DNA from: a virus
Lineage: Duplodnaviria; Caudoviricetes
Virus record (IMG/VR): IMGVR_UViG_2974670102_000001
Coordinates: 64,001 to 128,000 of that record
Length of the DNA: 64,000 bases
Strand: one strand, 5' to 3'
The notes beneath the pieces are model-generated. The model was not told the origin of the DNA. It did no database searches and was given only the letters and a program-made list of their open reading frames with translations. The translations under genes were made by a program, and so were the position numbers. Shown here in pieces: positions 47,660 through 56,616 of this stretch (position 1 is the first letter of the stretch; each line of letters begins with the position of its first letter).

Positions 47660-48345
47660 CGGTCGGTCGTCGGTTCCTGTAATTGATCTTGGGGGTCACC
47701 TGTATGGGACCCATTGGTAATTTATTTACTGCACTCAGTTCATCACACGAGTGTAACAGTTTTTGGTTTCACGATCAAGCCCTCGACCACGAGTGGGCGC
47801 AGCCCCGAGTGGGCAGCGTGGAGCGCGAGCGACACGCATTCCCAAACCGTCAAGCATCCAAGCTGTTGAGCACGCTGAGGGTCAGGGGAGCATGGATCGC
47901 TGCGCTCTCCATGCGAACCGCGTGCTGCGCACGGGTTTTTCCTTCCTGAAGAGAAGAAAAGGCTATGTAATTGAAAAGTCATAGCATCCATATAGATAGT
48001 ACGGCCGGGGCAGACTTTCAATTACATGGATCGGGACCAAAACGAGCCAAAAATCGCAGTTTTTCGCTACTTTCCTGACTTTTGTCGATTTTTCACACTT
48101 TTCTTCATTAAAAACACGTGTAATCAGGGCTTGACAGCGGCCGTATGTCCCATATACATTACGCGCACGCTATATCGCGCAATATGACGCGCGCCCAACA
48201 GGAGGATATGATGCACTATGACGAACATTACGCGCGTGCTGGCCGGTCGGCATAAGCTCGCAAGACCGATAAATAAAGGTCGCATCATGTTGACCCAGTT
48301 CGACGTTCCGTGTTAGCATCTGTTCATCACTGACAACCCGAGAGG
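47660..48345. other. AT-rich divergent intergenic region at the strand switch (candidate origin/control region)
   Basis: Largest gene-free gap; A/T tracts at 48045-48115; TTGACA-18-TACATT on + at 48131-48160. Confidence 0.5.
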
Positions 48346-48543: not shown

Positions 48544-49065
48544 ATGGCTACGAAAACTGGTTCGCGCTCTGCACTCCTGCCGTCCGTGACGCAGACACCG
48601 GCTCCCAAGAAGCCGAAGTTGAGGACCCCGGTCTACGTCGACCGCGAGAACCGCGTGCTCACCGTCGACTCGCGCGTCAAGACCTACCTGCGTCCGCTGT
48701 CCAAAGGCATCAGCGAAAAGGGCACGGTCGTCGCCATCGACGAGCGCGGTCTCTCGGTCAAGATCGACGGCGTGCGTGAGGTTCGCGAGTACACGGTCGA
48801 GGAAGCGGCCGAGAAGCTGATCTTCACGGGCATGAAAAAGAAGAAAGTTCGTTACGCGGAAGATTGCTCGACCGACGAGCGTGCCCGGGCATCCGTCGAG
48901 ATCGGGCGCTCCGGAATTCTGGTCGATCTGTATCTCGACGACCGGTCTGTGACGATTAATATCGAGCCTGAGCACGTTATGCGCGCGCTCGAAGGTCGTC
49001 CCCTAGGCGGGGTGATCCCGCAAGCACGCGCTCGTGTTCGCACCTACTCGGCGGTCTCGGAATGA
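48544..49065 (+). CDS. hypothetical protein
   Basis: AAGGAGGT RBS. Confidence 0.8.
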   Translation: MATKTGSRSALLPSVTQTPAPKKPKLRTPVYVDRENRVLTVDSRVKTYLRPLSKGISEKGTVVAIDERGLSVKIDGVREVREYTVEEAAEKLIFTGMKKKKVRYAEDCSTDERARASVEIGRSGILVDLYLDDRSVTINIEPEHVMRALEGRPLGGVIPQARARVRTYSAVSE

Positions 49066-49412
49066 GCACGCGTAGCAACAAGAAGATGAGTCGTGGCCTC
49101 AACGGGGAAGTAATCGATCACAAGCGTTACATCAAGACTTACCGCTATCAGGTGATGCGGGTCATTCGCGACATCGAGAACGGGAGCGTGAACGAAGAGG
49201 ACATGGCAAAGCTTCGCAACTTTTGTCAAATGTCGATCACGTTGATGGAACACGCGCCGATTTCGCAAATTCAGGCAGCGTGGCGCGACACCGAGATCAT
49301 GGCGTTCGCGCACGATGCAGTTGACGACGTGCAGGACACCGGTGTAGTATTGCGCGGTCCCGATCAACCGGCTCGGTCAGGCTGCATCCCCGAGTCCTTT
49401 CGCAAGGAGTGA
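49062..49412 (+). CDS. hypothetical protein
   Basis: ATGA coupled. Confidence 0.7.
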   Translation: MSTRSNKKMSRGLNGEVIDHKRYIKTYRYQVMRVIRDIENGSVNEEDMAKLRNFCQMSITLMEHAPISQIQAAWRDTEIMAFAHDAVDDVQDTGVVLRGPDQPARSGCIPESFRKE

Positions 49413-49738
49413 ACATGGAGAACGAACAACGCGTTGAGTTTGTCGAAGACTGGGCATCGGTGCTTCCCGAGCGCATTCGCAACCATAACAAGGACACCAT
49501 CGATAAAATCTCGATGGTGCTCGACGACGACAGTGTGTATGCGAAGCTGCACATTCCGATGAAGGAAGGTGAGTACGTGCAGGAGGTGGATGTCACGCAC
49601 CTGCATCCCGAACTTCGTGCGCGTCTCGCGCTCTCCCTGTTTCGTGACGCACTGGAACTCACGCGCAAGGCCCGACGTGAAGGCCGCCGTCAAGTCCGCA
49701 AGCTCATCAACGAAGCACTCAACCCCATGTACGACTAA
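49409..49738 (+). CDS. hypothetical protein
   Basis: AAGGAG RBS (true start may be 49415). Confidence 0.7.
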   Translation: MNMENEQRVEFVEDWASVLPERIRNHNKDTIDKISMVLDDDSVYAKLHIPMKEGEYVQEVDVTHLHPELRARLALSLFRDALELTRKARREGRRQVRKLINEALNPMYD

Positions 49739-49749
49739 GGCAGGAAACC

Positions 49750-49896
49750 ATGGAAGATCAACCCATCAAACTCACGGAAGCTGAGACCGAACGCTTCCTC
49801 GAAACACTGAAATCGCCGCCCCCGCCGAACGCGGCACTCGTCGAGGCGATGCGCAAATACCGGGAACAGGAGGAAGCAAGTGGCCGAAATCAATAA
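49750..49896 (+). CDS. 48-aa stand-alone DUF1778 (AtaR/TacA/KacA) antitoxin C-terminal-like peptide (not in ORF track)
   Basis: CAGGA RBS; MEDQPIKLTEAETERFLETLKSPPPPNAALVEAMRKYREQEEASGRNQ. Confidence 0.7.
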   Translation: MEDQPIKLTEAETERFLETLKSPPPPNAALVEAMRKYREQEEASGRNQ

Positions 49897-50125
49897 CGAC
49901 CGCTACATGATCTATCAGGACAGCGACACGGACTACTGGCTCGCGTACATAAAGCTGGGCCCGGACCCGGGCATCACGGTCAACGTCACGCACGTGCCTG
50001 AGCCCAATCGCGAGACCTTCGTGAAGCTGCTGCGTGATCAGATCATCCGGGCCGCAGAATCCGCGTTCAAGCGCGGGTCCTATGACGCAAAACTTGGAGT
50101 GCGTATGGCGCTCCGACTCGACTAA
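49880..50125 (+). CDS. hypothetical protein
   Basis: CAGGAGG RBS, GTG start. Confidence 0.7.
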   Translation: MAEINNDRYMIYQDSDTDYWLAYIKLGPDPGITVNVTHVPEPNRETFVKLLRDQIIRAAESAFKRGSYDAKLGVRMALRLD

Positions 50126-50134
50126 GGAGGACGC

Positions 50135-50413
50135 ATGAAAAAGTTTATCGCACTGGCGGTCGTCGCCGTCACCCTCGCTGGGTGCGGCCCGGAGCCCGAC
50201 ACCCCGCTCGGCGGTGTCCAATACACAGAAGGTCGCTTCCAAGTCGCACGCGTCGGCGTCTTCCGCGACGAACTCGCGTACGGTGACAAGCGCGGCATCT
50301 ACACGTTCGTCGACACGAAGACAGGCAAGGAGTACGTCGGTGTCTCGGGCATCGGCATCGCGGAGACGGGTTCGCACTCCAGCGGCAAGACCCAGACGCA
50401 GGACGAGCGATGA
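50135..50413 (+). CDS. lipoprotein
   Basis: MKK + hydrophobic core + lipobox LAGC. Confidence 0.8.
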   Translation: MKKFIALAVVAVTLAGCGPEPDTPLGGVQYTEGRFQVARVGVFRDELAYGDKRGIYTFVDTKTGKEYVGVSGIGIAETGSHSSGKTQTQDER

Positions 50414-50634
50414 GCGCTACTCCACTCTTTCTCGACGACGCTCCGCACCTGACGCCACTCGGTTTCGCAAATCGTCTCTACGTCGATAGCGTCCAGCACT
50501 CGATGCTGCGCCTGAATCGCGAGCGTACTGCCTACCATGATATGCCCGTCTACGGTGTGGATGAGGTTCAGAAACTTCTGCGCTACGCACAGGAAATGCG
50601 TGATCTGGCGGACCGTTTGCAGAGTGGGCGCTGA
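50410..50634 (+). CDS. hypothetical protein
   Basis: Coupled ORF. Confidence 0.6.
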   Translation: MSATPLFLDDAPHLTPLGFANRLYVDSVQHSMLRLNRERTAYHDMPVYGVDEVQKLLRYAQEMRDLADRLQSGR

Positions 50635-51071
50635 TGCCGATCTACAGAGAAGGTATCGATCTTGACCAGTATGTCTCGACTTGGGACGAACCGGACAGCG
50701 TTGAGGGTTTAGGCTACTGCTACCGATACACGGACGTGAAGTACAGTCCGGGTGTAGACGAGTGGGATGATCCGCTTCCACGCTCGCCCGGGACCCACTT
50801 GGGCATTCACGTGCACGAATACAAGGTGCTGCGTGAAACCAAGTGCGGCTTCTGGTTCTACGACACTTACGAGGGCCGTGAGCGCTTCATCAACAACTCG
50901 TGGACCAAGAAGCATGCGCTCCGTTCGAAGGAAGCGGCACGCGATTCGTATATCGCGCGCAAGGAAAAGCAGATCACGCTGCTCAAGCGTCAGATAATCG
51001 ACGCCGAAGAGTTCTTGCGCATGGCCCGTGACCAACAAGCGCGCGGCGTCGCCCAATCTATCTGGAGGTAA
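50634..51071 (+). CDS. hypothetical protein
   Basis: Coupled ORF. Confidence 0.7.
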   Translation: MPIYREGIDLDQYVSTWDEPDSVEGLGYCYRYTDVKYSPGVDEWDDPLPRSPGTHLGIHVHEYKVLRETKCGFWFYDTYEGRERFINNSWTKKHALRSKEAARDSYIARKEKQITLLKRQIIDAEEFLRMARDQQARGVAQSIWR

Positions 51072-51072
51072 C

Positions 51073-51483
51073 ATGGGTCTGGAATACTACGCACTGAACC
51101 ACGCACGCGCCGAAGCCGTGTCGTTGGGTCGCCTCGGCTTTCGCTTCGACGCGTTGCTGAACGTGACGGACCAAGCGGAGTTCGAGCGTGCGTGTTTCGA
51201 ATCGCTGGTCGCGTCCGGTTTCGACTATGCACGCGCTGCCGAGTTCGCACACGACTTCTACGATTTCGGGGCCGACGAAATATGGAACGACGGACAGGAC
51301 GTGTACGAATATTTCTCGTGCTACCGCGTGGTCGACGCGCTCGACCACGAAGAGATCGGGAGCAAGCTCGGTGACTACTTCGTGCGGTCCGGTATGCTTC
51401 CGGTCGAGGCCCTGAGTCTGCGTCACCCGCGCGTGCAGATTGTGCTGGGCCGAGCCAAGATCACGCAACCCAATTTGAATTGA
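51073..51483 (+). CDS. hypothetical protein
   Basis: GGAGGT RBS before MGLEYY. Confidence 0.7.
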   Translation: MGLEYYALNHARAEAVSLGRLGFRFDALLNVTDQAEFERACFESLVASGFDYARAAEFAHDFYDFGADEIWNDGQDVYEYFSCYRVVDALDHEEIGSKLGDYFVRSGMLPVEALSLRHPRVQIVLGRAKITQPNLN

Positions 51484-51487
51484 CCTG

Positions 51488-51516
51488 TTGACGGTGTAGT
51501 AAAGACAGCGTATAGT
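51488..51516 (+). promoter_or_regulatory. tRNA-array promoter: sigma70-type with embedded GTAGTAAAG motif
   Basis: TTGACG-GTGTAGTAAAGACAGCG-TATAGT, 9 nt before first tRNA. Confidence 0.7.
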
Positions 51517-51525
51517 TCAGGACTC

Positions 51526-51602
51526 GGGCGGTTAGCTCAGGGGTTAGCAGCGTTCGGCTCATAACCGAGGGGTCGCGGGTTCGAATCCCGCACCGCCCAC
51601 CA
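51526..51602 (+). tRNA. tRNA with CAT anticodon (Ile2-like or elongator Met)
   Basis: GGGCGGT/ACCGCCC acceptor, loop CTCATAA, GTTCGAATC, encoded CCA. Confidence 0.9.
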
Positions 51603-51658
51603 CACAGAATAGGAGGCAATCATGAGTAGATTCTAGTGAACCAACTGGAGGTGTTCTC

Positions 51659-51946
51659 ATGAAAGCAAAAGCGTTTTACCATCGTGTTTGTAACTACGGC
51701 CCGGGCGGCTACCACTGCCCGTGCTGTGGTCCCGCACCGAGCATGCGTCGTAAGGAGCGTCAGCAACAACGACGCAAGTTCCATCGACTGCTTGACGTTC
51801 TGGACAAGTTTGACACCGAAGTCGAAATCGAATACGACAACCTCGTGCTCAACGATTTCGACGACGAGCGTCACGACTACTACAACGGCTGGGGCGGTGA
51901 TCCCAGCCTGCACGATGAGTGGAAGGATTGGAAGAAGGCAGCTTGA
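51659..51946 (+). CDS. small protein with GPGGxxCxCC motif, Arg-rich then acidic
   Basis: GGAGGT RBS; YGPGGYHCPCCGP. Confidence 0.75.
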   Translation: MKAKAFYHRVCNYGPGGYHCPCCGPAPSMRRKERQQQRRKFHRLLDVLDKFDTEVEIEYDNLVLNDFDDERHDYYNGWGGDPSLHDEWKDWKKAA

Positions 51947-52010
51947 CCGTACTGCACCGCAAAGCCTTAGATGCGGTGTGCCGCGAGAACGTGAGCGGTG
52001 CAGTGCACCT

Positions 52011-52096
52011 GCCCGGGTGGCGGAATTGCTAGACGCGACGGACTCAAAATCCGTTGGCCCTAGGCCGTGTGGGTTGGAGTCCCACCCCGGGCACCA
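52011..52096 (+). tRNA. tRNA-Leu(CAA)
   Basis: GCCCGGG acceptor, ACGGA-CTCAAAA-TCCGT, long variable arm, CCA; atypical T-loop TTGGAGT. Confidence 0.88.
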
Positions 52097-52098
52097 TC

Positions 52099-52137
52099 GC
52101 GAGGGTGGCGAAATTGGTAGACGTGGCGAAATTGGTA
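52099..52137 (+). pseudogene. 5' half of a split tRNA-Leu with 15-bp D-arm duplication
   Basis: GCGAGGGTGGCGAAATTGGTAGAC then GTGGCGAAATTGGTA repeated. Confidence 0.8.
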
Positions 52138-52177
52138 ATCCCCAATTTTATTTCAGTAACCAACGTGGAGAAGATTC

Positions 52178-52888
52178 ATGCTAGAACTGAAAAACGACAT
52201 GCCGATTTTGGCCAAGAAGTTGTCCGGTGTGTATGGTCACGAGATTCGTATCATCGGGCCGTACGTGGACAAGAGAAACGGGCGTAAGCTCGTGGACATA
52301 AAGGGTGCGCCCCGTTCCTCGGGAATTAACAAAACCGTGCAGCTTGCACGTGCGCGCCTAGAAGTAAAGCTTGGTCGACGCCTTGTCGATGACGAGACTG
52401 TCGACCACAAGAACAACGATTGCACGGATGACCGTCCGAGCAATCTTCAGTTGCTGACGCACGCAGAGAACTCGGCAAAGCAGACGAAGGAAACGCGTAG
52501 TCGCTCGGCTGAAGCGTCTCGCACCGCCGAGGCGCGTTCCGCTAACAGCAAACGCAATACAGGTGAGAAGAATCAAGCTGCCGTCCTTACCGATACTGAA
52601 GTGAAAAGGTTTCGCACACTTTTCAGTAAGGGTAAAATGACGGTCAAGCAAATCGAAGATGCGTCGGAGTTGACAAATCGTTCGGTTCGTAATATGCTTG
52701 ACGGCCTGTCGTACAAAACGGCAGGCGGACCGCTCCGCATAGCAGGCTCTGTTGGTCGCGCATCCTCGTTGTCAGAGAAGCACAGGCAGTACATAGCGAA
52801 TCACGCAGAACTGTCAGCCGCGCAGATTGCAGAAGAACTTGACGTGAGTAGGTATGCAGTGATACGATACCGACGCACGCTTAACTAA
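52178..52888 (+). CDS. HNH homing endonuclease with C-terminal HTH modules
   Basis: ARARLEVKLGRRL...VDHKNNDCTDDRPSNLQLLTHAEN. Confidence 0.88.
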   Translation: MLELKNDMPILAKKLSGVYGHEIRIIGPYVDKRNGRKLVDIKGAPRSSGINKTVQLARARLEVKLGRRLVDDETVDHKNNDCTDDRPSNLQLLTHAENSAKQTKETRSRSAEASRTAEARSANSKRNTGEKNQAAVLTDTEVKRFRTLFSKGKMTVKQIEDASELTNRSVRNMLDGLSYKTAGGPLRIAGSVGRASSLSEKHRQYIANHAELSAAQIAEELDVSRYAVIRYRRTLN

Positions 52889-52889
52889 C

Positions 52890-52976
52890 GGGAGTGTGCT
52901 GGAATTGGTAGACGGAACGGATTTAGATTCCGTAGGCCGCAAGGTCGTGTGGGTTCGAATCCCATCACTCCCACCA
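52890..52976 (+). tRNA. tRNA-Leu(TAG)
   Basis: GGGAGTG/CACTCCC, ACGGA-TTTAGAT-TCCGT, long variable arm, CCA. Confidence 0.92.
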
Positions 52977-53006
52977 CTACACGAAATTTTAGTTAAAGGT
53001 ATTTAA

Positions 53007-53246
53007 GTGCCGCCAAGCATCGAACAGGTAAAACTTATACTCAGATCAGCAGCATTGTCTCCGAGCAGCAGTCAGTTGTCTATTTCTGGCTTTGACGATA
53101 TCATGAAGGCAGCAGAGGAAGCCTATTGTGGAGATAGCCGAGCCATGCTCACAAACGTCCGGGAAATTGCCTTGCAGTTTCCGGACAATACGATGATGAT
53201 GACGATTTTGGCGCTGTATTCTGAATCCATGCTGAGTATGCATTAA
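53007..53246 (+). CDS. hypothetical protein inside the split-tRNA insertion
   Basis: 79-aa ORF, lower GC than flanks. Confidence 0.5.
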   Translation: MPPSIEQVKLILRSAALSPSSSQLSISGFDDIMKAAEEAYCGDSRAMLTNVREIALQFPDNTMMMTILALYSESMLSMH

Positions 53247-53260
53247 GCGCAATCCCCACA

Positions 53261-53310
53261 GTCCTGCCGGTCGAAAGGCCGTGAGGGTTCGAATCCCTTT
53301 CCTCGCACCA
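53261..53310 (+). pseudogene. 3' half of the split tRNA-Leu
   Basis: Long variable arm GGTC-GAAA-GGCC, GAGGG-TTCGAAT-CCCTT, TCCTCGC-A-CCA pairs with GCGAGGG at 52099. Confidence 0.85.
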
Positions 53311-53404
53311 CTTTGGATTGTAGGCGTAAATCGAGCGGGACTTCCCCACCCACTCGATTAGGTATGGTACACCTTATAGACCGTCGCCTACAATCCAAAG
53401 TGGT
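53307..53404 (+). ncRNA. candidate structured RNA closed by a perfect 20-bp stem
   Basis: ACCACTTTGGATTGTAGGCG / CGCCTACAATCCAAAGTGGT with two internal hairpins. Confidence 0.55.
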
Positions 53405-53477
53405 TGTGGTAAAGATGTAGTGTGCTTTGCCTTTGAAGCGCGGGCGCTGTGGTTCTCAGGCCACGACAGCGCCCAAC

Positions 53478-53553
53478 GCCGGTTTAGCTCAGTTGGTAGA
53501 GCAGCGCCCTTGTAAAGCGCAGGTCACGGGTTCGAGCCCTGTAACCGGCACCA
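53478..53553 (+). tRNA. tRNA-Thr(TGT)
   Basis: GCCGGTT/AACCGGC, loop CTTGTAA, CCA; C-A mismatch at the base of the anticodon stem. Confidence 0.9.
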
Positions 53554-53574
53554 CTAAACAATAACAACGAGGTT

Positions 53575-53916
53575 GTGATGAATACGCATGAGGCTTACGA
53601 GATCGTCGATAGACTGACGCCGGTATCGGTCAGGAACCTCGAAGACGCGTACGTACGGTTCATGGAAATGGCGCTTCTGGTCGATCCACACCCGGAGACT
53701 GAAGACCGGGCCACACGGGATCGTGAGACATACACTGAATTCCTGCTACCGCCCGACGAGAACGGCAATCCCGTGATTTCGGTCCCGGGCATGCACCAGT
53801 TTCTGTCCAAGATCACGGGCCATCCACTACAAACCTGCGTAGCCTTCGACTATGTTGACTTCCATCGCGTGCACGGCACGACGGTAGAGGACGCGGAACT
53901 CGCTGGCTACGTTTAA
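53575..53916 (+). CDS. hypothetical protein
   Basis: GAGG RBS. Confidence 0.7.
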   Translation: MMNTHEAYEIVDRLTPVSVRNLEDAYVRFMEMALLVDPHPETEDRATRDRETYTEFLLPPDENGNPVISVPGMHQFLSKITGHPLQTCVAFDYVDFHRVHGTTVEDAELAGYV

Positions 53917-53925
53917 GGACGGACC

Positions 53926-54138
53926 ATGGAAGAAGACGCATACAGGTTCAGTGTGGCAGCGCTCAAAAGCGAGTACGACGCTGAACTGCTCGAACTGCGC
54001 AAGACAGTGCTTGAAGGTCGCGGTGACGTTGCTGGGTTTATCAAACTCAAGGAGTCGCTTGACTCAAGGCTGAAGGACCGCGTTAGCGCGGTTACTGGCG
54101 CACGCAGTCAAACACAGAACAAGTTGCTGTACAACTGA
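53926..54138 (+). CDS. hypothetical protein
   Basis: AAGGA RBS. Confidence 0.65.
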   Translation: MEEDAYRFSVAALKSEYDAELLELRKTVLEGRGDVAGFIKLKESLDSRLKDRVSAVTGARSQTQNKLLYN

Positions 54139-54144
54139 ACAAGA

Positions 54145-54221
54145 CTCCGCTTAGCTCAGCCCGGTAGAGTACGTGATTTGGGATCACGGGGTCGCAGGTT
54201 CAAATCCTGTAGCGGAGACCA
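54145..54221 (+). tRNA. tRNA-Pro(TGG)
   Basis: CTCCGCT/AGCGGAG, CGTGA-TTTGGGA-TCACG, CCA. Confidence 0.92.
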
Positions 54222-54239
54222 CACAACATAGGAGGTGTC

Positions 54240-54590
54240 TTGGAAACCACTTACGACTACAGCCTTACGTTCGACCTGACTGACATCATCGTGTTCGTTC
54301 TGATCGCGATCATGATCAAGATGGTCATCGACATCGTGCGTGAGCGCATGCGAATACGCAGGCTCCGACGCGACATGGGGGCAAACGGCAATCTTCCGTG
54401 CATCACGATCTCGGGTAACGACGATGTGTCGATCTCGGGTCTTGTGTACGAAGGGCGGCCCATCCCCTCGGTCGATATCAAGAACAAAGCGCTGTTCGTC
54501 GACGGTCAGTTCAAGCGCCGCCTCGCCCGCAACAGCCGTGTCTACAACCGTGGCATCGGAATCTTCGCGGACGGCAAGTACATGGGGTAA
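54240..54590 (+). CDS. single-TM membrane protein
   Basis: AGGAGGT RBS, TTG start, N-terminal hydrophobic helix. Confidence 0.7.
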   Translation: METTYDYSLTFDLTDIIVFVLIAIMIKMVIDIVRERMRIRRLRRDMGANGNLPCITISGNDDVSISGLVYEGRPIPSVDIKNKALFVDGQFKRRLARNSRVYNRGIGIFADGKYMG

Positions 54591-54594
54591 TACC

Positions 54595-55059
54595 ATGCGC
54601 AGTATCTTTCACATTTCGGTCGGCTCCGATAACTGGAACCCGACCGAGGACGAACTTGCGGGCATCGTCCGCAAGTTCAAAGAACTGGAAGCAAAGCAGG
54701 GTCAGCGTCAACAGCTTCCCGATACCCGCAAGATCATCCACATCAGTGTGGGTGCTGAGGATTGGACGCCTACCGCAGACGAACTGTTGGCCATCGTCAA
54801 TCAGTTCCAGTATGCAGACCTCGATCCGCTCGGTGGGTGGATTGCGACGCGTCACGGTATCAAAGTCACTGACATCGAGACCGCCGCACAGCCCACGCTG
54901 GTGGTGAACGGCACGACCCACGAAAGCGAGGCTCGTGCTTCGCTACGTCAGGACTCCATCGACCGGCTTGAGGCCATCCGCGAAAACCTGCGTACGTTCA
55001 AGCTGAGCACGCTCGATGTCGACACACTGATCAATCGGTTGTCGACGTATCAACTTTAA
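54595..55059 (+). CDS. protein with two tandem HISVG..W.PT.DEL repeats
   Basis: SIFHISVGSDNWNPTEDELAGIV and KIIHISVGAEDWTPTADELLAIV. Confidence 0.75.
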   Translation: MRSIFHISVGSDNWNPTEDELAGIVRKFKELEAKQGQRQQLPDTRKIIHISVGAEDWTPTADELLAIVNQFQYADLDPLGGWIATRHGIKVTDIETAAQPTLVVNGTTHESEARASLRQDSIDRLEAIRENLRTFKLSTLDVDTLINRLSTYQL

Positions 55060-55080
55060 CCGAAAAGCTTAGGACAACAA

Positions 55081-55512
55081 ATGAAACAACTCAACACGCA
55101 ACGCCGCTTCGAATGCCTGACACCGGAAGGTACATGGGTCTCCGTGCACTGGGAGCAACTGGAACCGGGCGACATGATCCGCCTCCTGCCCGCTGTCGGC
55201 ATCACCGAGGACGTTCCGCCGACCGACGTATTCGTCGTCATGGACACGCCTACCGTGAACGTGCGTTCGGTGAACGAAATCCGTGCCGAACAAGCAGCCG
55301 CAGCGCAGCGTGAAGCGCTGGCCAACACGGAAGGTGTCGATGCTATCCAAGCAGCGCAGCGCGATATCGACGCAGCCGTCGAGCAGATGAAGCCGGTAAC
55401 AGAGGCCGTGGCAAAGGTGGCGCACGCAGTAAAGGCCAAGAAGACGCCGAGCCCGAAGGTTCCGGCACCGGCACGCAAGCCGCGCACGCGCAAGGTCGCG
55501 ACGCCGAAGTAA
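55081..55512 (+). CDS. hypothetical protein with basic tail
   Basis: AGGA RBS. Confidence 0.7.
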   Translation: MKQLNTQRRFECLTPEGTWVSVHWEQLEPGDMIRLLPAVGITEDVPPTDVFVVMDTPTVNVRSVNEIRAEQAAAAQREALANTEGVDAIQAAQRDIDAAVEQMKPVTEAVAKVAHAVKAKKTPSPKVPAPARKPRTRKVATPK

Positions 55513-55624
55513 TGGCCGTGTAGTAAATAGGTTGGGTGAGCGCGGAAACGCAATCCCCAATTTGAGTTGTACAGAAAACTAGTGCTGGTTGCCGGATGCA
55601 GTTGTTACCCGGAACAGCACACGC

Positions 55625-55714
55625 GGATGGGTGCCCGAGTGGCTAAAGGGGGCAGACTGTAAATCTGCCGGGCCTCAGTGTCCTACGTTGGTTCGAATCC
55701 AACCTCATCCACCA
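55625..55714 (+). tRNA. tRNA-Tyr(GTA)
   Basis: GGATGGG/CTCATCC, GCAGA-CTGTAAA-TCTGC, long variable arm, CCA. Confidence 0.93.
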
Positions 55715-55767
55715 GAACATAAGCAGGAGCCCTGAGCATCAGGGCATCAGGGCAACAAGGAAAAGCA

Positions 55768-56049
55768 ATGCCGATTAAGCCGCTGTATGACAAGGTGGTG
55801 GTGCGTACCACCGACACAGACCGTACGACTGTAGGGGGCATCGTGATCCCCGCTGCTTCGCTCAAGGCGAATCAGGCTGTCGTGGTCGCTGTCGGTGACG
55901 GCCACCTTATGCAAGACGGTACGCTTCGACCGCTGTCCGTGAAGGCAGGCGACGTTGTGTACCTCTCGCATGAAGGCTCCGAGATCGAAGTCAACGGTGA
56001 AAAGCTTCGCGTCTTCATCGAAGGCGATCTGATAGGAGTCCTCAACTAA
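55768..56049 (+). CDS. groES: GroES/Cpn10 co-chaperonin
   Basis: IKPLYDKVVV, TVGGIVIP, VVAVGDG, PLSVKAGDVV, EGDLIGV. Confidence 0.93.
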   Translation: MPIKPLYDKVVVRTTDTDRTTVGGIVIPAASLKANQAVVVAVGDGHLMQDGTLRPLSVKAGDVVYLSHEGSEIEVNGEKLRVFIEGDLIGVLN

Positions 56050-56058
56050 GCAGTACAT

Positions 56059-56135
56059 TCCCCGTGAGCAAGCTAGGCGACTGCACCGGACTGTTAATCC
56101 GGCATTGCGTGGTTCGAATCCACGACGGGGAGCCA
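56059..56135 (+). tRNA. tRNA-Asn(GTT)
   Basis: TCCCCGT/ACGGGGA, CCGGA-CTGTTAA-TCCGG, G-CCA. Confidence 0.9.
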
Positions 56136-56139
56136 ATCA

Positions 56140-56242
56140 TGAATAGGTCATGAGTAAGGCAGATCACTCAATCCGGAAACTCAAAAGGTAATCCGGGTAG
56201 CAATGAGCATCCTGTAAGCCGAGACGATGATTGACTTATTCA
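56140..56242 (+). ncRNA. candidate structured spacer RNA
   Basis: 11-bp closing stem TGAATAGGTCA/TGACTTATTCA with internal hairpins; fills the whole tRNA-Asn to tRNA-Phe spacer. Confidence 0.5.
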
Positions 56243-56244
56243 GA

Positions 56245-56320
56245 GCGCGGGTAGCTCAGTTGGTAGAGCACCGGACTGAAAATCCGGGTGTCGCTGGTTC
56301 GAGTCCAGCCCTGCGCACCA
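56245..56320 (+). tRNA. tRNA-Phe(GAA)
   Basis: GCGCGGG/CCTGCGC, CCGGA-CTGAAAA-TCCGG, CCA. Confidence 0.93.
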
Positions 56321-56322
56321 GC

Positions 56323-56438
56323 GTTGTGATCGAGTGAAAATCGTAGGAAGGGGCCGATTACCCTGACCGCAATCTGTAGGTGGACCGGCTGGCCCTCATC
56401 CTGCTAGTGTAGATTTTTCCCATGTGGTTTCGATCAAC
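56323..56438 (+). ncRNA. candidate rod-shaped RNA
   Basis: Four nested stems: TGATCGAG/TTCGATCA, GAAAATC/GATTTTT, GTAGGA/TCCTGC, GGGCC/GGCCC. Confidence 0.5.
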
Positions 56439-56539
56439 TAATCATTGTGTGGTTGTAGCGCACTAAATCAGACGGCCGGGCTCCGGAGCCCGCGTACCAT
56501 ACCACCCCGGATGGAAACCGTTGAATATTCCGGGTCGAT

Positions 56540-56616
56540 AGGGGTGTAGCCAAGTTGGTTAAGGCAACGGATTTTGATTCCGTCATGCGTAGGTTCGAAT
56601 CCTACCGCCCCTTCCA
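56540..56616 (+). tRNA. tRNA-Gln(TTG)
   Basis: AGGGGTG/CGCCCCT, ACGGA-TTTTGAT-TCCGT, CCA. Confidence 0.92.

Follow-up and report, generated by a model that had tools for sequence, protein, structure and literature searches.

The GNAT-RHH toxin-antitoxin (TA) modules TacAT, AtaRT and KacAT have been studied mostly for persistence, and their role is still debated. They are two-gene modules in which the toxin gene lies adjacent, as a rule directly downstream, and their antitoxins (TacA, AtaR and KacA; PF08681) carry an N-terminal RHH domain for DNA binding and dimerisation together with a C-terminal toxin-binding element. [quoted passage not shown] AtaR keeps AtaT an inactive monomer, with dimerisation prevented (PMC8138530). 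Laboratory peptides of this segment have been crystallised bound to toxins, namely the 46-residue AtaR C-terminus on AtaT (6GTQ, 6GTR) and a 36-residue TacA3 peptide on TacT3 (7AK9), so tail-only peptides of about this size bind GNAT toxins. No experimental report of GNAT-RHH modules defending against phage, a role that the initial annotation proposed for them, was found in the literature searched.

The concept of a phage antitoxin is already established by T4 Dmd, a protein unrelated in sequence to the host antitoxins that it replaces. The logic proposed below is that of Dmd as an antitoxin against host RnlA and LsoA (summarised in PMC10100988): the labile host antitoxin is replaced by a small protein of the phage, which itself binds the toxin. 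The function of Dmd is proven and that of the protein described here is putative; the latter is a true homologue of part of a host antitoxin. Phage members of the TacA/DUF1778 family are also on record: a role against the TA systems of the host has been suggested for ORF106 ('TacA') of cyanophage S-CREM1 (PMC9964418), Klebsiella phages VAC13 and VAC66 have a 'DUF1778 domain-containing protein' that was tabulated among phage anti-host mechanisms (PMC10100988), and UniRef labels gp199 of phage BcepSaruman as DUF1778-containing. In view of these entries, the statement in the initial annotation that the family had not been described as a phage counter-defence was too strong. The earlier descriptions proposed or tabulated these proteins as anti-TA factors without pointing out the tail-only architecture. 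BcepSaruman gp199, S-CREM1 ORF106 and VAC13 ORF215 have the same module as the gene analysed here, with no partner toxin gene seen nearby.

We analysed a window of 64,000 nucleotides (bases 64001-128000) from a virus record of 262,653 bp that is rated 100% complete. The GC content is 58.1%. The source is a Burkholderia phage, and the sister phage BcepSaruman holds the closest protein relative, gp199. The gene of interest, hereafter the tail gene, lies in the following setting.

48131..48319, plus strand: sigma-70-like promoter candidates at 48131-48160, 48184-48212 and 48290-48319, within the divergent intergenic region that precedes the operon
48544..51483, plus strand: operon in the ORF list, made up of nine small genes that abut or overlap, the tail gene being the fourth
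49737..49745, plus strand: Shine-Dalgarno-like AAGGCAGGA, 4 nt ahead of the tail-gene ATG and overlapping the stop codon of the upstream gene (direct reading)
49750..49896, plus strand: tail gene of 48 aa with an ATG start, stop codon counted in, encoding a stand-alone TacA/DUF1778 toxin-binding tail (PF08681, hhalign, orthologues P0001 and P0002)

There is no upstream ATG, GTG or TTG within the 71-codon stop-to-stop frame of the tail gene, which therefore cannot be longer. The stop of the preceding gene is at 49738, and a possible GTG start of the ORF that follows is at 49880, giving a 17-nt overlap with it, so the tail gene fills the gap in the operon. A 48-aa ORF with a ribosome-binding site in the operon gap had been claimed at the outset, and its coordinates, start and length stand as written, in agreement with the Shine-Dalgarno-like site and both neighbours. 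The claimed placement in the first plus-strand operon ahead of the tRNA array likewise agrees with the ORF list and the tRNA positions: nine tRNA genes lie downstream of the operon (51526-56616), all of the phage's tRNA genes fall in the window, and none in the whole genome is a tRNA-Gly. The other eight operon genes gave no known family in Pfam and PHROG scans. A consensus scan ahead of the operon saw 6 sigma-70-like sites against 2.0 expected, as a pattern match alone, and these candidates would act as the operon's promoters.

Several further features were noted around the tail gene. A sigma-70-like match at 51488-51516 (+; TTGACG, 17-nt spacer, TATAGT) stands directly before tRNA-Met(CAT) at 51526, so the tRNA array may have its own promoter. 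Inside the array, between two tRNA-Leu genes, an HNH endonuclease with C-terminal HTH domains (52178-52888, +) is probably a homing endonuclease. The stretch 50135-50413 (+) encodes a predicted lipoprotein of 92 aa that has a lipobox; the protein reaches PF08139 with E 0.0015 and 19.3 bits, below the 20-bit cut-off, matches PHROG 16585 and weakly resembles Cor superinfection-exclusion proteins at its N-terminus. We considered adjacency to tRNA genes as a general rule and rejected it, as five other tail-bearing loci are without tRNA genes. A phage peptidyl-tRNA hydrolase as a second measure against GNAT toxins was also rejected, none being found in this phage.

The Pfam model PF08681 (TacA1, formerly DUF1778; curated cut-off 21 bits) matched the tail protein with 26.3 bits (E 7.3e-6), residues 3-38 aligning to columns 44-79 of 80. 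This is the C-terminal-only coverage that the initial annotation had predicted. In an hhalign comparison with a profile made solely from bacterial DUF1778 antitoxins, 18 full-length sequences with the phage protein left out, the probability was 98.7% (E 1.8e-16, columns 57-98 of 111). With the same bacterial-only profile, an hmmsearch of all 5,876 frames of at least 25 aa in the phage genome returned the tail frame as its sole match (E 1.7e-15; next best 0.78). A tblastn search of 72,556 plasmids gave ten matches, each of them inside an annotated DUF1778 gene and several beside GNAT acetyltransferase genes. Taken together, the bacterial-only profile, the plasmid matches and the Pfam result indicate that the similarity to antitoxins is real, specific and beyond chance. 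The nearest full-length antitoxin is P0010, a canonical 90-aa protein from a Beggiatoa MAG (52-54% identity), and residues 2-40 of the tail protein (54% identity) align solely with its last 40 residues; the tail of a Cupriavidus plasmid antitoxin is 53% identical. The AtaR string given in the initial annotation is consistent with chains 6gtq_C and 6ajm_C of the AtaR structures.

Among 1.8 billion representative proteins, phmmer found eight short relatives, and PF08681 was present in all seven that were scanned. A search for longer homologues with the single tail protein as query gave nothing; a profile search yielded 973 relatives, most of which are full-length antitoxins (90-105 aa). In bacteria the tails are joined to RHH and occasionally to AbrB-, Phd- or AF2212-type N-termini. 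The tail protein matched no PHROGs, NCBIfam or PADLOC family. Searches of a phage collection by megablast with the window sequence and by tblastn with the protein gave no match, the collection probably being without close records, and IMG/VR scans by protein pattern returned few or no loci. Long matches in the representative search (P0005, P0006 and P0009) were discarded as repeat-protein artefacts. Staphylococcal protein A in the PDB was also set aside: it gives summed weak repeat matches of about 10 bits per repeat, and this helix-Pro-helix look-alike inflates the whole-sequence E-value with no homology.

In contrast to TacA, AtaR and KacA, to whose C-terminal toxin-binding element it is homologous, the tail protein has no RHH domain. 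The RHH region (PF08681 columns ~1-42) is absent, and the ORF begins 4 residues before the strand. The upstream 109-aa ORF has no similarity to the antitoxin profile (hhalign probability 0.15%) and no RHH, and the two ORFs are read in different frames; a split antitoxin with its RHH in that ORF was therefore rejected. The phage also differs from two-gene modules in being without any GNAT toxin gene. Models PF00583, PF13508 and PF13673, together with a profile of six TA-type GNAT toxins, found none in the whole 262,653-bp genome, and the overlapping 81-aa ORF downstream (49880-50125) is not GNAT-like. As a control, the toxin profile found a toxin immediately downstream at 7 of 9 tail-bearing bacterial loci and is thus sensitive enough. 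The absence of an adjacent toxin claimed in the initial annotation was borne out, and the search for a cognate toxin elsewhere in the phage genome, a possibility which that annotation had raised, came back empty for the three Pfam models and the toxin profile. The 81-aa ORF was considered as a new toxin partner and rejected, as it has no GNAT similarity and is not kept beside tails in other phages.

The peptide can be divided into four elements by alignment to antitoxins of solved structure and by an AlphaFold2 model.

49762..49776, plus strand: betaB counterpart, residues 5-9 (PIKLT), by alignment to AtaR 51-84 and KacA 54-84 (KacA boundaries from PMC6698736)
49777..49812, plus strand: alphaC-equivalent helix, residues 10-21 (AlphaFold2, mean pLDDT ~96), with conserved hydrophobic F16, L17 and L20
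49813..49830, plus strand: proline linker SPPPPN, residues 22-27, equivalent to KacA 71-PPAP-74 (PMC6698736); P23, P24 and P26 are invariant in the alignment
49831..49881, plus strand: alphaD-equivalent helix, residues 28-44 (AlphaFold2), whose last residues vary among relatives and overlap the next ORF

In KacA and AtaR, betaB pairs with a beta-strand of the toxin, and PIKLT is its aligned counterpart in the tail protein. Across alignments, the hydrophobic residues F16, L17, L20, L30, A33 and M34 are conserved along with the prolines. The AlphaFold2 model, made from a 17-sequence alignment, has a pLDDT of 90.3, with helices at residues 10-21 and 28-44 on either side of the proline linker. A Foldseek search of 350,542 PDB chains returned only three matches, KacA (5zgn_B), the AtaR C-terminus (6gtr_C) and the TacA3 peptide (7ak9_C), with E-values of 4.7-9.2 that are not significant alone because the model is very short (48 residues). 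By sequence, the tail profile matched AtaR, TacA3 and KacA in the PDB with E-values from 3.5e-9 to 4.6e-5, ranking the 46-residue AtaR fragment first (6gtq, 6gtr; E 3.5e-9) and the 36-residue TacA3 peptide (7ak9) next. By this model and by alignment to AtaR 51-84, KacA 54-84 and the TacA3 peptide, the tail protein corresponds to the element (strand, helix, PPxP linker, helix) with which KacA, AtaR and TacA wrap GNAT toxins in the solved complexes. The laboratory peptides are engineered truncations of cognate antitoxins, whereas the tail gene is natural and its target only putative; judged from its sequence, it encodes nearly what was made in the laboratory to trap the toxins for crystallography.

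BcepSaruman gp199 (P0001) is an orthologue of 48 aa and 85% identity that agrees with the tail protein in length and in its first and last residues, and P0002 is a second listed orthologue. A third Sarumanvirus-like relative, known from a 1.1-kb contig (L026), has a syntenic 46-aa copy whose codons 1-36 are identical to those of the tail gene; divergence is confined to a mosaic block starting at the gene's end and follows codon 36 in both this relative and gp199. The contig is identical to the window over 49673-49852, nearly identical after 50212 and about 25% divergent over the 81-aa ORF, which with its flanks spans 49853-50211, and the codon differences in that ORF are 28 non-synonymous and 12 synonymous. 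This block beside the tail gene appears to be a mosaic or fast-evolving cassette. The two Sarumanvirus genomes, BcepSauron and BcepSaruman, share 93% nucleotide identity (bioRxiv 10.64898/2026.10.21.760668).

Homologues without the RHH domain, which the initial annotation had expected in phages, were found well beyond this group. P0011 (48 aa) lies on a 45.7-kb phage-like metagenome contig among small same-strand genes, beside MazG and an HNH gene, and P0012 (68 aa) on a phage-like contig among small genes including T4_Y16D and DUF4031, with no GNAT gene near either of them. ORF215 of the T4-like Klebsiella phage vB_KpnM_VAC13 (103 aa) has a Cys-rich N-terminus followed by the tail, at a sub-threshold 17.8 bits. 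A DNA-pattern scan of IMG/VR (NPPxPNxALxxA) gave 38 loci, 33 of them with an ORF matching the tail profile. No GNAT toxin was identified within the fetched loci of these 33 contigs, compared with 7 of 9 bacterial loci (Fisher p 1.3e-6). Ten of the IMG/VR tails were checked against Pfam, and coverage was tail-only (columns 35-80) in all ten, with six above threshold. The stand-alone proteins in IMG/VR are 43-100 aa long, one of them on a 447-kb contig.

The same element was also observed within longer proteins. In uncultured phages, two families of multi-pass membrane proteins (320-515 aa) contain an internal TacA tail at PF08681 columns ~43-79 (IMG/VR loci L032-L034, L037, L039, L040, L046, L048, L049, L052-L054, L056, L065-L067 and L011-L014). 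At two IMG/VR loci, L031 and L044, the tail stands in front of a cytidylyltransferase-like domain, and there are other fusions too. Two or three tandem tails without RHH occur in P0003 (L007:279-683), P0007 (L008:4001-4426), P0004 (L009:83-616) and P0008 (L010:289-684). P0007, with two tails, belongs to a conjugative element; its neighbours include a TrwC relaxase and a RelE/HTH pair but no GNAT. Such tandem-tail proteins may be multi-toxin decoys, as two or three tails could cover several toxins.

Because the phage keeps the tail only, with neither the DNA-binding part nor a toxin gene, it is a host tRNA-acetylating toxin that would most likely be switched off. We therefore lean, with modest confidence, towards reading the tail protein as an antitoxin mimic, a toxin sponge that neutralises host TacT-like toxins during infection. 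The tail gene would be co-transcribed with the other small genes from host-type promoters, probably early. In type II TA systems generally, a labile antitoxin that is not replaced frees its toxin; as infection halts host expression, labile RHH antitoxins would not be replaced and GNAT toxins would be freed. A freed toxin, for example B. cenocepacia TacT, would acetylate charged tRNA, and phage protein synthesis would stop. The tail peptide would dock on the toxin monomer as an antitoxin tail does, with its strand joining the toxin beta-sheet and its two amphipathic helices, connected by the PPPP turn, wrapping the toxin so that dimerisation and substrate access are blocked. This mode of docking and wrapping is established for KacA, AtaR and TacA and is presumed for the tail peptide. 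Since it has no RHH domain, the peptide would neither bind DNA nor repress any operon and would be a pure sponge, capturing a host TacT-type toxin once the antitoxin is no longer replenished, so that translation keeps running. The timing of expression, the target, its neutralisation and the harm that freed GNAT toxins would do to the phage are what we infer here.

Orphan tails in mobile DNA without a GNAT toxin (the 33 IMG/VR contigs, P0011, P0012, VAC13 ORF215 and P0007) count in favour of the sponge model, as does a host group with candidate targets. The TacT toxin of B. cenocepacia is active, and it acetylates hardly any tRNA other than Gly-tRNA(Gly) (PMC9177977). We also identified a DUF1778-GNAT pair on a conjugative plasmid of Burkholderia savannae, and B. 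cepacia has an almost identical one on record. The tail of the plasmid antitoxin is 42% identical to the tail protein, and both have the uncommon SPP instead of NPP. This was the single Burkholderia antitoxin tail retrieved, and its identity is modest. Cognate TacA-TacT pairs are usually specific, which, together with the modest 42% identity, counts against assigning a target within the sponge model; any specific host toxin named for the tail protein would be a candidate.

The main competing explanation, which we regard as unlikely, is that the tail has been reused as a general docking peptide that regulates or recruits a partner other than TA-type GNAT toxins, possibly another GNAT-fold enzyme or else some other host or phage protein. 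The occurrence of the motif within multi-pass membrane proteins, ahead of a cytidylyltransferase-like domain and as part of 300-760-aa proteins of unknown function would suit such a peptide, and a simple soluble sponge does not explain why it is so often part of large membrane proteins or enzyme fusions. The varied fusions, including the VAC13 tail that follows a Cys-rich segment, fit a generic adaptor, and the helix-Pro-helix fold is simple enough that protein A domains give look-alike matches at about 10 bits per domain. Against this reading, all significant non-phage relatives are DUF1778 antitoxins, as were all ten plasmid tblastn matches, a GNAT toxin is immediately downstream at seven of the nine bacterial loci, and the residues conserved in phage copies are those conserved in antitoxins.

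It is considerably less probable that excess free tail acts as a protease decoy, competing for Lon or ClpP and indirectly stabilising host antitoxins. Antitoxin C-terminal regions are disordered until bound (PMC6698736) and are degraded by host proteases, and literature cited in PMC10100988 discusses how phages may inhibit Lon to counter TA systems. However, the conserved positions of the tail cluster on the proline turn and on the hydrophobic face that contacts the toxin, not on termini typical of degrons, and AlphaFold2 predicts a well-formed helical hairpin. Finally, the least credible account is that the ORF has no function, being either the decaying remains of a TA module that was once captured or an ORF that arose by chance: the ORF is very short and 7 of its 48 residues differ from BcepSaruman gp199 despite 93% genome nucleotide identity (bioRxiv 10.64898/2026.10.21.760668), but the 48-codon length and both end residues are kept in BcepSaruman, a syntenic 46-codon copy exists in the third relative, the ribosome-binding site and coupled spacing are present, the ORF begins and ends where the structural module does, unrelated phages have independent stand-alone copies (43-69 aa), and its flanks hold no remnants of RHH or GNAT.

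Of the toxin-antitoxin pair, many unrelated phages retain just the neutralising piece of the antitoxin and never the toxin, which is indirect evidence that GNAT toxins matter during infection. If the antitoxin-mimic reading is confirmed, a defined family would be added to the short list of phage anti-TA proteins, and a 40-residue peptide would be enough, which would help in the annotation of small phage genes missed by gene callers. The tail gene offers a tractable test case, in which a cultured Burkholderia phage is paired with a species of host that has a characterised TacT. More tentatively, tail-only TacA modules could be widespread modular decoys of phages and conjugative elements, in stand-alone, tandem, membrane-anchored and enzyme-fused forms, GNAT-RHH systems then being a common threat to phages through abortive infection by tRNA acetylation, and the copy described here would disarm a Burkholderia TacT-type toxin. 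If such tail-only decoys are indeed widespread, GNAT-RHH systems would be a real and common threat to phages.
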